From Alphaproteobacteria bacterium (GTDB taxonomy: Bacteria; Pseudomonadota; Alphaproteobacteria; UBA7985): DNA of 64,000 bases. The position numbers and the translations under genes are program-made. A model generated the notes under the pieces. The model was not told where the DNA came from and did not search any database. It worked only from the letters and a program-made list of their open reading frames with translations. Location: the NCBI GenBank assembly GCA_965228345.1, contig CBDDHH010000004.1, positions 2,620-66,619 on the forward strand, read 5' to 3'. Shown here piece by piece: positions 5,917-31,759 of the stretch (its first letter is position 1; the number at the start of each line of letters is the position of its first letter).

Positions 5917-6106
5917 ATACCAGCGGCAATTATAAATGACTCTTATGATCGCTGGTATAAGGGCCGCGACTGCGGCCCCCGTAGCGGCCCCGAGATCGGC
6001 GGACACGCGCCTCGGGGTATAAGCGAAGGGGAGGCGAAACGCGAAGCGTTTCTGCCGTGAGACACGAAATGGTCATGAAAAGGTCACTTTTTATGACCGT
6101 TGGTAT
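5917..6106. repeat. Complete 190-bp modular repeat containing an EMPTY IS110 target site (6056-6068)
   Basis: ATACCAGCGG...GGTAT hairpin (5917-5958) + core + hairpin (6062-6106); minus strand reads TTCGTGT-CT-CACG. Confidence 0.92.
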
Positions 6107-6205
6107 AAGTCCCCTTAGTGCGCGAAGACGCATGGCGTATGTTGTCGCTCTGGGGGCCGAAACCCCTCGCGAACAAGGATACGCCCATCACCTGGGATCG
6201 GCCCG

Positions 6206-7234
6206 ATGAAGTTTCTTGACGAAGCCAAAATTTTTATCAAGTCGGGCGACGGCGGCAATGGTTGCGTCTCGTTTCGCCGCGAGAAGTACGTTGAACACGG
6301 CGGGCCTAACGGCGGCGACGGCGGGCGCGGTGGCGATGTTGAGTTTCGCGCAGTAGACACCCTCAATACCTTAATCGACTTTCGCTATCGCCAGCACTTT
6401 CGCGCCGTGCGCGGTCACGATGGCAAAGGGCGCCAAATGTCGGGCAGGGGCGGCAAGGTTTTGACGATCGACGTCCCCACTGGAACGCAAATTTTCGACG
6501 AAACCAAACGCCATATCCTCTTTGACTTAACCGAACCCGGTCAGCGCGTCCTGGTCGCCCGCGGCGGCGACGGTGGCCGCGGCAATACCCACTTCAAATC
6601 CTCGGTCACTCAGGCGCCGCGCAAGGCCGAACCTGGCTGGCCGGGGCAGGAATTTTGGGTCTGGTTGCGCCTGAAATTGATTGCGCATGTCGGCTTATTG
6701 GGCCTGCCCAACGCGGGCAAGTCCACGTTCTTGAGCGCGGTTTCCGCAGCCAAGCCCAAGATCGCCGACTACCCCTTTACCACCCTGCACCCCAACCTGG
6801 GCATCGTAGCGCACGACGAACGATCCTTTGTGCTGGCCGATATACCGGGATTGATCGCGGGTGCGTCGCAAGGCGCGGGCATCGGCACACGCTTTTTGGG
6901 CCATGTTGAACGAACCAAAGTGCTGCTGCATCTGATCGACGTGACCCAAGACGCGCCGCACGCAGCCTATCAAATCGTGCGGGACGAGCTGGCAGCCTAC
7001 GGCGGTGATCTCGTGGCACGCCCTGAGGTCGTTGCCCTCAATAAGACCGATGCTTTGATTCCCGAGCTGTGCCAGGAAATCGCGCAAAACTTTCAGGCCG
7101 CGACCGGGGTCAGGCCGCTGCTGGTGTCGGGGGCTACGGGGCAAACCCAGGCGGTCTTGCGCGCCGTGACCGCCCATGTTTTTCGCCGCGCGCAAGGAAA
7201 TCCCAAAATCGAGGCCCCAGAATGGACGCCCTAA
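6206..7234 (+). CDS. obgE: GTPase ObgE/CgtA
   Basis: MKFLDEAKI, Gly-rich Obg domain, [22 protein letters not shown]. Confidence 0.97.
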
Positions 7235-8328
7235 GCGCACTGACGAGGGCCAAGAGGTTGGTGATCAAGATCGGCTCGGCGCTGCTGGTTGAGGCGGGGC
7301 AGGTGCGTGCGCCCTGGTTGCAAGCGCTCATGGCCGATCTAGCAGCCCGCGATGGCGAAACGTTGATCGTGTCTTCGGGCGCCATTCGTCTTGGTCTTGG
7401 CCGCCTCGGGTTTGATCCGCAACGCATAGACCTGAGCCAGAGCCAAGCCGCCGCCGCCGTCGGGCAGATCGCCTTGTCAGGGGTTTATGAGCAAGCGGCG
7501 GCTCGCGAGGGGCTGAAGATCGGCCAAATTTTGCTCACCCAAGAGGATACGGAGGCGCGGGGACGTTATTTGAACGCGCGCGGCACCCTGACCACCTTAC
7601 TGGAGGCAGGGGTGATTCCCTTGGTGAACGAGAATGATACAGTCGCAACGGCAGAAATTCGATTTGGCGACAACGACCGCTTGGCAGCGCGCGTGGCGGC
7701 CTTGGTCGGCGCCGACTGCTTGCTGATCCTCTCCGACATTGACGGGCTCTATACGGCCAATCCCAAGTCCAACACCGACGCTCAGCACGTCCCGCTGATT
7801 CGCGAGATCGACGCACGCGTGAGCGCCATGGCCGATGCCCATTCCGACCCCCTGTCCAAGGGCGGGATGGCAACCAAACTGGCGGCGGCGCAAATTGCCC
7901 TGGCGGCGGGCACCCATATGGTGTTGGCCGACGGGCGGGCGCCGGCGCCCTTGACGCGGCTGCATCAGGGCGCGCGCGCCAGCCTGTTTCAGGCCGAAGG
8001 CACCCCCACCAGCGCGCGCAAGGCCTGGATCGCAGGCAGTCTCAAACCCATGGGCCGCCTCCGGATCGACGCGGGCGCGGCCCGTGCCCTTGGTCAAGGC
8101 AAATCGCTTTTGCCCGTGGGCGTTACGCAGGTGTCAGGCCAGTTCGATCGCGGCGCGGCGGTGCAGGTCTTGGACGCCGAAGGTCGCGAGGTAGCGCGGG
8201 GCCTTGCCGCCTACAGCGCGGCGGAGGCACAGAAAATTTTGGGTTTGCATTTGGACGAAATCCAGGCATCCCTCGGCTACATCCGTACCAAGGCCCTCAT
8301 TCACGCGAACGATTTGATATTGTTATGA
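7222..8328 (+). CDS. proB: Glutamate 5-kinase with PUA domain
   Basis: VIKIGS, VSSGA, NEND, FGDNDRL, GGMATK; start moved to ATG 7222. Confidence 0.96.
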
Positions 8329-29660: not shown

Positions 29661-31380
29661 TGCGCAATTCCTTTAGCGGTTCCACGCCCATGAGCCATAG
29701 CCCCGCCCTTAATGTAACGGCCACCTGCTCCACCAAGAAGAGCCGGGCGACCGTCAGGTCAAAATTATCTTCGAGTATAAATCGCCTTCCAGGGTCCCGC
29801 CCCATCGACCAACGTGCGTTAAAGACAGCAGCAAGGTCCAGCAGGTAAAAGGCCACGCGGTGTGGTTCCCTCTGCAGGGCAGCGGCCTCCAAGACTTTGG
29901 GCCAGAGCGCCAGCTGCTTTGCCACCTCCAAATCCTCGACAGTCAAGAGAGAAAGATTGGTAAGCTCTTGATTTATATCGATTTTATTTGTGCCTGTCCA
30001 GACTTTTTCTATTTCATGGCGTAAAGAATGGGTTCGCGCATGCGCGTATTGAATATAAAAGACAGGATTGTCGCGATTTTGTGCCCGAACTTTGCTAACG
30101 TCAAAATCAAGAGCTTCGCTGGATCTTCGAGTAAGAAGCGTAAAGCGCAAGGCGTCAGGCCCAACCCAGTCCAACACGTCGCGCAGAGTTACAAAGGACC
30201 CTGCCCGCTTCGACATCTTGATGGGGACTCCTTGGTTCAAGACCTTGACAACCGCGCAGGTCAGAACCTCTAGCGTCGCCGCCCCGTCTGTCACGGCGCG
30301 GGCGGCCGCCTGCATGCGGCGAATGTAGCCCTTGTGATCTTCTCCCCAAACATCAATCAAGGTCCCGCGCGTGCGCAAATACTTGTCACGGTGATAGGCG
30401 ATATCATTCGCAAAATAGGTGCTCGTCCGGTCGCTCTTTTGTAGAGGGCGATCTACCTCGTCCCCAAACTGCGTTGCCCGAAACAACAGCTGCTCGCGCG
30501 GTTCCCAGTCGTCGGGCTTTTTGCCCTTGGGTGGATCCAAGGTTCCGCGATAGACTAGGCCTTTCTTGTCGAGGGCCTCCAAACACGTCGCAACTTGACC
30601 TCTGGCAATCAAAGAAGCCTCAGAGGAGAAGACTTGGTCGATCGATAGACGGTGCAAATCGGCACGAATGAGGTCCAAGAGATAGGAAATGGCGAAGGTC
30701 TTCAGCGGGTCGTGCCAATCAGGGGTGTTGAGCCAGATGTCGCCATCGCGATCCCGCAAGGCTTGCGCAACCTCGATCAGATACATCCCAGGGTAATGAC
30801 CGTCTGGAATCTGCACGGTTTCGCCAAAAAGTTCGCGATAGCGTAAGTAAAGGCTCTGGGCCAAGGTATCGACCTGGGCACCCGCGTCATTTAGGTAGTA
30901 TTCGCGCGTCACCTCAAACCCGAGTGCAGTAAGTATGCGGGCCAATACGTCGCCAACGACCGCCCCTCGCGCATGGCCCATGTGCAAGGGCCCGGTGGGG
31001 TTGGCCGAAACATATTCGACATTGATCGCCTGACCCTGGCCGAGGGTTGAGTGGCCGTAGCGTTCACCTGCGCTATGGATCGACTGCAGCACCGCGTGCC
31101 AGGCGACATCTTTCAAACGCAAATTCAAAAATCCAGGCCCCGCAATTTGGGCTTCTGCCAACCAATCCCACCTTTCTAACCGGGTGGCGATCTTCCCTGC
31201 AAGGTCGCGAGGCGCGAGGCCCGCAGGTTTGGCCAAGACCAAGGCAGCATTAGTCGCTAAATGGCCATGGCTGGTGTCGCGCGGTTGATCTACCGCGACT
31301 TTGCTGGTGTCCGTCGGAACCGGCACCAGGCCAGCCAAGGCCGAAATGATCTTGTCACGGGTCAGGGCAAAGAGATTCAT
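29623..31380 (-). CDS. argS: Arginyl-tRNA synthetase
   Basis: VEYVSANPTGPLHMGH, KMSKRAG, NPVFYIQYAHAR. Confidence 0.98.
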   Translation of the reverse strand: MNLFALTRDKIISALAGLVPVPTDTSKVAVDQPRDTSHGHLATNAALVLAKPAGLAPRDLAGKIATRLERWDWLAEAQIAGPGFLNLRLKDVAWHAVLQSIHSAGERYGHSTLGQGQAINVEYVSANPTGPLHMGHARGAVVGDVLARILTALGFEVTREYYLNDAGAQVDTLAQSLYLRYRELFGETVQIPDGHYPGMYLIEVAQALRDRDGDIWLNTPDWHDPLKTFAISYLLDLIRADLHRLSIDQVFSSEASLIARGQVATCLEALDKKGLVYRGTLDPPKGKKPDDWEPREQLLFRATQFGDEVDRPLQKSDRTSTYFANDIAYHRDKYLRTRGTLIDVWGEDHKGYIRRMQAAARAVTDGAATLEVLTCAVVKVLNQGVPIKMSKRAGSFVTLRDVLDWVGPDALRFTLLTRRSSEALDFDVSKVRAQNRDNPVFYIQYAHARTHSLRHEIEKVWTGTNKIDINQELTNLSLLTVEDLEVAKQLALWPKVLEAAALQREPHRVAFYLLDLAAVFNARWSMGRDPGRRFILEDNFDLTVARLFLVEQVAVTLRAGLWLMGVEPLKELRNDTDRQSTGGMD

Positions 31381-31424
31381 ATTGATTGCCTATCGCACCT
31401 TTGGACCCCGTGTCAGGCCCAATA

Positions 31425-31759
31425 ATACCAGCAGCGAAGGAGAAAGACTCTTTTGATCGCTAGTATTATACCAGTTCTCCTTAAAACAGACTCTTTATGA
31501 ACTGGTATAGGGCCGCGACTGCGGCCCCCGTAGCGGGCTCCAAGCCCGAAGGGCGCAGGGAACGCCCGCGCCAAAAACAAGCGGCCCCGAGAATAGCTAA
31601 GAAAGCGCCTCGGAGTATAAGCGAAGGCCCCGTCGCGCGGTCGGGCTGAGCGAGTGGTGCGAGCGAGGTGAGACCGCAACTCCAAAAGCCGAAACGCGAA
31701 GCGTTTCTGCCGTGAGACAAAACTCTGCTGAAAATGTCAATTTTTAGCGGAGTTGGTAT
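31425..31759. repeat. Longest modular repeat (335 bp) with two stacked left hairpins
   Basis: Hairpins 31425-31466, 31468-31508, 31717-31759; full GC-rich core; target variant GTTTTGT-CT-CACG. Confidence 0.9.

Follow-up and report, generated by a model that had tools for sequence, protein, structure and literature searches.

High-copy miniature elements with hairpin ends and ISAli3-like termini in an alphaproteobacterial genome

The repeat family in the window and in the genome

The stretch of DNA analysed in the present study, hereafter the window, comprises 64,000 nucleotides of an alphaproteobacterial genome assembly (GCA_965228345.1, contig CBDDHH010000004.1, positions 2,620 to 66,619 of the forward strand), and coordinates are those of the window unless a contig or another genome is named. 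[quoted passage not shown] We consider it very probable that the family consists of high-copy non-autonomous DNA transposons that descend from an ISAli3-like IS of the IS630 family and are mobilised by it in trans, the mobile unit being the whole ~190-bp TACCA...TGGTA element, which inserts at T-N-A sites (TNA, N being any base). The features of the window that belong to the family, with end hairpins assigned to lettered classes, are the following.

1..176 (+): 3' portion of a long-variant MITE, truncated where the window begins, with an IS110 left-end remnant of ~26 bp (about 108-133) and a right hairpin (134-176) whose outer arm resembles the inner one in sequence
802..847 (+): MITE end of class A, made up of a hairpin and ...TTTCGTGTCT, with TGA as flank, severed from its MITE by a truncated IS110 copy at 848-1657 (+)
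3922..4254 (-): fragment of an IS110 left end (3922-4208), directly adjoined by a MITE end of class A (4209-4254) with flank TAA
4487..4576 (-): part of a MITE, comprising the GC-rich core (48-bp optional insert included) and a hairpin of TACCAGTTC type; an unrelated 119-bp MITE, one copy of which lies at about 4572-4697, truncates it
5918..6105 (+): canonical 188-bp MITE, left hairpin class B, right class A, flanks TAA/TAA
12220..14768 (-): ISAli3-like IS630-family element, flanks TAA/TAA, broken by two insertions, an IS3-family IS (12327-13588) and the 119-bp second MITE (14143-14261)
19513..19708 (+): canonical 196-bp MITE, left class B, right class C, flanks TCA/TCA
25510..25627 (-): 118-bp deletion variant with self-pairing right hairpin, core module 3 and left hairpin, module 2 missing, one terminus mutated to GGTC, flanks TTA/TTA
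26493..27921 (-): MITE of the 48-bp insert variant, class A end at 26493 and class B end at 27921, flanks TTA/TTA, carrying a full-length IS110 (26539-27731, +) inserted at ...GTGT-CT^CACGG... with CT on both sides
27925..27966 (no strand assigned): 42-bp hairpin unit with degenerate termini and class-E arms, joined to the preceding MITE by one shared TTA (27922-27924)
31426..31758 (+): 40-bp hairpin unit (31426-31465), shared TTA (31466-31468) and a 290-bp long-variant MITE (31469-31758) with a TACCAGTTC-type left hairpin, a class-E right hairpin and both optional inserts
57384..57419 (+): class-A MITE end with the inner arm deleted, flank TTA, beyond which, at 57420, an IS110 left end begins that is apparently interrupted after a few bases, the remainder of this IS110 lying at 58291-58987 (+)

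An initial annotation of the window had described hairpin-capped loci sharing the pattern ATACCARC-N12-WGAC and had named a genome-wide scan for this pattern as a check. Within the window the motif is matched exactly 13 times where 0.01 matches are expected, a number reached by none of 100 shuffled sequences, and it is matched 444 times in the whole 2.45-Mb genome (4 contigs), which establishes the repeat family as real. Genome-wide, 659 family intervals were found, 319 of them at least 150 bp long, summing to 89.7 kb or 3.7% of the genome. Family sequence is present at every locus originally named, but the one at 4461 is an internal fragment only, without an ATACCA start. The loci at 801, 4211, 26492/27732 and 57383 appear split because IS110 insertions cut the MITE ends off, a circumstance that had gone unrecognised.

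When each plus-strand end was joined to the next minus-strand end, 118 pairs and 208 unpaired ends were obtained. Pair lengths peak at 188-198 bp with minor peaks near 238 and 290 bp, and as is usual for MITEs the elements are short (mostly 185-300 bp), gene-less and present in many copies, many of them 96-100% alike in this genome. The 51 copies of 185-202 bp can be aligned end to end. They begin with a 40-bp left hairpin (TACCAGCGG..TGAC..CGCTGGTA) followed by TAA, then a GC-rich module with a GGCCGCG stem, then module 2, in which a CCCCGAG stem encloses a variable cassette as its loop and ends in GGGGTA followed by TAA or TCA, then a GAAACGC-N3-GCGTTTC stem, and finally the right hairpin, which has a 15-bp stem, a TGAC loop and an outer arm ending CCGTTGGTA. 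Longer forms carry one or two optional inserts, one of which is the 48-bp insert. A single strand of the MITE folds into five local hairpins in a row (z -6.2 as DNA, -5.5 as RNA). Five end classes dominate (n=82, 50, 43, 39 and 39), and they combine left to right in several ways among the aligned copies, bearing out the earlier remark that modules are mixed. The internal TAA/TCA junction was considered as a copy of the outer duplication, which would imply assembly at the locus; in the 51-copy alignment it is an ordinary polymorphism unrelated to the flanks, and this idea was dropped.

Among the matches listed when public genomes were scanned for the core motif, at least 77 copies belong to a single further record, an alphaproteobacterial metagenome-assembled genome of 3.25 Mb. 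This genome (G002, 3.255 Mb, of which 2.855 Mb of sequence was analysed) represents a sister species in the same genus, and the family makes up 2.1% of its covered part. The MITE occurs in 2 of the 22 genomes of the order examined, these being the present genome and G002, and was not found in a third member of the genus (92% complete, 110 contigs).

Element limits, TNA duplication and recent mobility

The base two positions before ATACCA is T at 420 of the 444 ends and the intervening base varies, a regularity missed by the initial annotation; the flank is therefore T-N-A and the element starts at TACCA. In this genome the two flanking TNAs are identical for 39 of the 51 elements of 185-202 bp and for 52 of all 86 pairs up to 320 bp (29.1 by chance), with poorer identity in the longer and odd-sized classes (10/25 and 3/10). 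Canonical copies in G002 have identical TNAs in 78 of 99 cases (TTA 32, TAA 22, TGA 12, TCA 12), so all four middle bases are used.

Empty sites were sought by mapping the 150-bp flanks of each MITE onto the other genome, which located the two flanks of 6 among 86 elements from this genome and of 15 among 113 from G002. An overlap of exactly 3 nucleotides between the flanks, the mark of an unoccupied site carrying one TNA, is seen at 17 of the 21 loci (values at the remaining four are -2, +5, 1161 and 1954), and no insertion is shared between the two species at any of the 21. The 17 filled counterparts are whole elements of 194-292 bp, none of them a solo hairpin. For the window element at 5918-6105 the orthologous point in G002 is empty, with a single TAA. 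Because 17 of 21 orthologous sites are empty and none is shared, the family has moved in both lineages since the species split. The target duplication is the 3-bp TNA, and the combination of target duplication and filled/empty polymorphism is that expected of MITEs. Empty-site polymorphism had been named beforehand as a test and was thereby observed, but at TNA rather than at the TA sites that had been anticipated.

A duplication of TA or of 5 bp is incompatible with the empty-site junctions. A 1-bp duplication, with the element beginning at A, may be considered since two empty sites read TTG where the filled counterpart reads TTA; against this, the flank differences are spread across all three positions, and mutation is judged sufficient to account for them. 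One further locus is of separate note. At C3:378815-379010 this genome carries a 196-bp MITE, and G002 has 1161 bp between the same flanks (about 2054783-2055945), which could be a full-length IS at the same site.

The ISAli3-like clade and the IS110 inside the MITE

G002 contains 22 DDE_3 matches in several groups, including five copies of a 1172-bp element with the ends of the IS630 copy in the window (TACCAACGG..TGAC and TACCAGCGG..CGAC). At least one of these copies has an open orfA (170 aa) and orfB (180 aa). OrfB matches DDE_3 (PF13358) at 94.9 bits and the NCBIfam IS630 model NF033545 at 142.9 bits (cut-off 100), while orfA matches HTH_32, HTH_33 and HTH_29, with NF033545 at 93.9 bits, under the cut-off for that half alone. 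The element thus has the DDE_3 domain, the N-terminal HTH and the NCBIfam match that characterise the IS630 family. The MITE ends (TACCAGCGG.. and TACCAACGG.., TGAC at 20-23) match both of its ends as terminal inverted repeats, the TACCAAC end resembling the left end of the IS and the TACCAGC end its right end. The proposal that the MITEs have their ends in common with a resident IS630-family element is thus upheld by the window copy and by the 1172-bp IS of G002 alike. Both termini of the window copy carry the pattern as reported, the second with CGAC in place of TGAC.

At the protein level, orfB shares 60.6% identity over 179 aa with ISAli3, which is carried on plasmids of Azospirillum lipoferum 4B; the identity with an IS630-family element from plasmids of Paracoccus liaowanqingii is 65%. 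All three ISAli3 copies and both Paracoccus copies examined start with TACCAGCGG or TACCAACAG, have TGAC at 20-23 and are flanked by direct repeats (TGA, TTA, TTA, TCA and TTA). The 1172-bp IS therefore shares with the ISAli3-like subgroup a similar transposase, TACCARC termini, TGAC at 20-23, TNA repeats and a length of about 1.16-1.18 kb, and the initial remark that no named family with this design was known is not supported. ISAli3 and the Paracoccus element are autonomous ISs whose ends do not fold back, whereas the abundant form here is gene-less, ~190 bp long and palindromic at its ends, with an unrelated GC-rich core. The fixed TGAC noted earlier is indeed conserved, but as a terminal-repeat block of the whole IS clade and not as a property of the hairpin loop.

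For IS630, ISY100 and Tc1/mariner elements, PMC2170065 gives TA as the only insertion site and a 2-bp TA duplication as the result, and the 3-bp TNA duplication of the present MITE and of ISAli3 departs from that rule. Judged from sequence comparison, the TNA duplication is a clade trait inside the IS630 family as defined by protein similarity, and membership of that family is not excluded by it. A literature search on IS630 elements with TNA and on ISAli3 found no paper treating this duplication, the overlap with PMC7471000 being confined to Tn names.

The MITE itself serves as a target. The open reading frame at 26777-27652 encodes an IS110-family transposase (PF01548, DEDD; PF02371, Transposase_20; NF033542 at 156.9 bits, cut-off 140), and the 1193-bp IS110 lies between the MITE sequences ...TTTCGTGT-CT and CACGGCAG..., with CT on both sides. 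The genome has 70 BLAST matches to this IS110, and all 29 full-length copies have the same MITE-internal flanks; four full-length copies are present in G002. The target of IS110 is thus a single fixed site internal to the MITE. Its left-end non-coding region contains TTCGTGTCT and CGTGAG, corresponding to the two target halves with the CT core, as well as ATGGATACT and GACAAG, corresponding to the two donor halves with the CT core. An Rfam search returned no model for the IS110 left end or for the MITE, its sole match being one tRNA (transfer RNA). From its domains and its target- and donor-matching non-coding end, we regard IS110 as a putative bridge-RNA-type element. PMC11208160 describes IS621 and further bridge-RNA members of the IS110 family as aiming at repeats, the IS621 bridge RNA as a non-coding end with two loops that match target and donor around a common core dinucleotide, and IS4321/IS5075 as targeting the terminal repeats of Tn21-family transposons. 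The present IS110 resembles such elements in its domains, the CT core on both sides, the guide-like left end and the use of one repeat-borne site, but its target is an internal site of an IS630-type MITE rather than a REP or a Tn21 end.

Other features of the window concern further mobile elements and neighbouring genes. The 119-bp second MITE is unrelated to the family (termini AGACCTCTGCATAA..., at least 14 genome copies), and one of its copies (C3:870730-870850) adjoins a Y1_Tnp gene (C3:870976-871332). The element at 12327-13588 is a 1262-bp IS3-family IS (HTH_Tnp_1 orfA, rve orfB) with about seven further genome copies at 100% identity. Just right of the IS630 end, at 14695-14991, lies an N-terminal fragment of a different IS630-family transposase, and the IS630 therefore landed in another IS630 relative. 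The IS that seems to interrupt IS110 at 57420-58290 is probably IS5-like, to judge from its reading frame, and some 70 bp separate a tRNA gene (57227-57310, -) from the MITE end at 57384. A gene for a 1211-aa CobN/Mg-chelatase large subunit (31777-35412, -) directly adjoins the MITE at 31469-31758, and a 1662-aa Type ISP restriction-modification enzyme (domains Mrr_cat_2, helicase, N6_Mtase and Type_ISP_C) is encoded at 45110-50098 (-).

Hairpin ends, solo units and competing explanations

In the right-end hairpin classes, whose loop is TGAC, 13-15 of the 15 stem positions are paired (z -5 to -10), and the arm pairs quoted in the initial annotation do pair with themselves. Folding is weaker in the left-end classes (z about -3), and the IS end has a 6-bp stem only (z -1.7). 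Low-copy MITEs of 114 and 130 bp that belong to related ISs have ordinary ends, which pair with each other, and lack terminal hairpins. The terminal hairpins are specific to the MITE. Covariation of the arms was assessed on 310 unique TACCAA-N13-WGAC 42-mers, chosen regardless of pairing. Stem cells were paired in 77% of cases, compared with 60% when the arms were shuffled (maximum 61.5% in 500 shuffles) and 38-51% in slid registers, and in 13 of the 15 stem pairs both partners have changed. Three large classes, together with a few small ones, have 13-15 of their 15 positions paired. Covariation as first claimed is therefore real between classes but only loosely kept within a class, and the outer spacer of the left hairpin, the most variable part of the MITE, is poorly compensated.

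The between-class covariation probably results from the way in which the palindromes formed. The transposase would read the terminal-repeat blocks TACCARCGG (positions 1-9) and TGAC (20-23), with the spacer between them, presumably unread, varying freely. The inner arm of the MITE would then be an inverted copy of this spacer, produced by palindrome extension or correction that may have started at the short inverted repeat of the IS left end (CAACGG..CCGTTG) via template switching, a process known for quasi-palindromes. An inner arm copied from the spacer would make each class self-pair without selection. A benefit of the hairpins for transposition is possible. A more far-reaching proposal, which we put forward as unlikely, is that the fold-back ends are an adaptation in which an inverted second copy of the transposase-binding spacer made the MITE far more transposable, and that the same palindromic modules became recombination hot spots which rearranged and shrank the genome, with 42-bp solo hairpins as scars. 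The hairpin MITE has about 250-320 copies per genome compared with 2-7 for the 114-bp and 130-bp MITEs, and this genome, at 2.45 Mb, is 0.8 Mb smaller than the 3.25-Mb genome of the sister species.

Solo 42-bp units with two outer termini number about 24 in this genome, one further match being a coding-region false positive. G002, which has intact IS copies, yields three matches, of which 1-2 are convincing and one is clearly unrelated. Flank mapping, performed like the gene-context counts below with simple scripts, located synteny breaks at 5 of the 7 solos and 15 of the 35 MITEs that could be assessed, compared with 2 of 185 points chosen at random. Symmetric derivatives also occur, three of 121 bp (right-right) and one of 113 bp (left-left), joined across internal palindromes and with unmatched flanks. 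Elements also stack. Junctions of the form GGTA-3 nt-TACC number 17 genome-wide, whereas every other spacing between 0 and 11 nt occurs 0-3 times, and the two tandem junctions reported at 27922/27924 and 31466/31468 were confirmed, each reading GGTA-TTA-TACC, that is, two elements with one common TNA.

These forms may be explained by recombination between copies, for which the palindromic modules would offer homology in both orientations, yielding mixed ends, symmetric derivatives, 42-bp solos and chromosomal rearrangements. Tandem arrays would arise where a new copy lands in the TNA beside a resident end, and if such a stack were mobilised through its outer ends, the TNA-like junctions within the MITE would be accounted for. 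MITE-mediated genome rearrangement or reduction is possible.

Several observations weigh against our interpretation. An intact IS630 transposase was not found in this genome, where the three DDE_3 matches are all broken or truncated, despite the near-identity of many MITE copies; either MITE activity ended recently or a copy is absent from the 4-contig assembly. The TNA flanks are identical in just two of the five G002 copies of the 1172-bp IS and differ in three. The arm-shuffle comparison is inflated by relatedness and draws on few independent classes. Variation within one class is concentrated in a single stem pair, for which 37 of 79 copies have a Watson-Crick match compared with 23 expected under independence, and pairing is therefore favoured, not required. 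Synteny could be assessed for just 35 of 86 MITEs and 7 of 24 solos, and the lower TNA identity at breaks (4/15) than at collinear sites (12/20) is a trend only (p = 0.087). The reciprocal inner-inner joint of solo-forming recombination was not found (0 in this genome), a result on which the reading of solo hairpins as inversion products was rejected, and its absence is explained by assuming that long palindromes are unstable. With respect to the transposase acting on the MITEs, we infer from the shared termini that it would be that of the ISAli3-like IS.

Under a first alternative, to which we attach little weight, the hairpins are kept by host-level selection as RNA or DNA structures, for example in the formation or stabilisation of transcript 3' ends, and the covariation reflects that selection. 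The strong local folding is in keeping with such a role, as is the position of the MITEs relative to genes. On rough gene calls, convergent intergenic regions hold 10 of 26 and 16 of 57 MITEs, compared with about 19% of all intergenic regions. Where the neighbouring genes run in tandem, 33 of 47 MITEs turn their left-hairpin end towards the upstream gene, and in the other 14 the right-hairpin end adjoins the upstream 3' end (p = 0.008). However, biases of orientation and context are also expected from purifying selection on harmful insertions, with which the observed context bias fits. The insertions are species-specific at all 21 assessable loci, the family was found in two of the 22 genomes, pairing is often broken within a class, and no Rfam family was matched. 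The right hairpin was also considered as a terminator of the upstream gene and rejected, the orientation bias running in the opposite direction (14/47).

The initial annotation had suggested instead that a single terminal repeat plus its mirror copy may act as a minimal mobile unit of ~44 bp. In a fuller form of this alternative, the fold-back of 40-42 bp is the mobile element and the larger MITEs are stacks of such units. The solos do have two proper termini with TNA on both sides, elements share one TNA at the 17 junctions, and the TAA after the left hairpin and the TAA/TCA after GGGGTA of module 2 resemble fossil duplications. Yet the flanks of the solos, identical in 7 of about 23, agree at no more than the chance level, most assessable solos sit at synteny breaks, convincing solos are far fewer in G002, with its intact IS, than here, where every IS630 copy found is broken, and all 17 empty-site pairs involve whole elements. 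We therefore regard this proposal as improbable and retain the whole element as the mobile unit.

The last alternative, REP/REPIN-like palindromes moved by a Y1 transposase of the IS200/IS605 or RAYT type, is suggested by the hairpin-rich design and by seven Y1_Tnp matches in the genome but is hardly credible, as the terminal inverted repeats are identical to those of an IS630-family IS, the 3-bp target duplication and empty sites contradict it (Y1 elements are not known to make a target duplication), and the Y1_Tnp genes are multi-copy, four matches scoring alike at 138 bits as fits IS copies rather than a single-copy RAYT. REP, BIME and REPIN sequences are intergenic mosaics of short palindromes, each with a conserved head tetranucleotide, moved by the product of a single-copy RAYT gene that REPs flank, and serve as IS110-family targets, and in both their modular, intergenic design and their use by IS110 they resemble the present family. 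They are not known to have terminal inverted repeats common to a DDE transposon or a target duplication, whereas the MITE described here has both.

Among the nearest known counterparts of the ISAli3-derived MITE proposed here are RUP of Streptococcus pneumoniae and Nezha of cyanobacteria, both IS630-derived MITEs that have terminal inverted repeats in common with IS630-family ISs. Like these elements (PMC3049150, PMC3184786, PMC10969869), the present family is short, gene-less, high-copy, mostly intergenic and strongly folding. Unlike in RUP and Nezha, each end of the MITE here is its own hairpin, and the ends do not simply pair together. None of the findings is a new kind of system.

For annotation, the family matters in that it accounts for about 3.7% of the genome and for many gene boundaries. 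The empty sites document TNA, not the textbook TA, for the ISAli3-like IS630 clade, which is relevant to IS annotation and to MITE finders built on the TA rule. The IS110, a putative bridge-RNA element living almost only inside a MITE, would represent a case of layered parasitism. Finally, since a large share of the synteny breaks between the sister species coincide with MITE copies, the family can usefully serve to trace genome rearrangement and perhaps also reduction.

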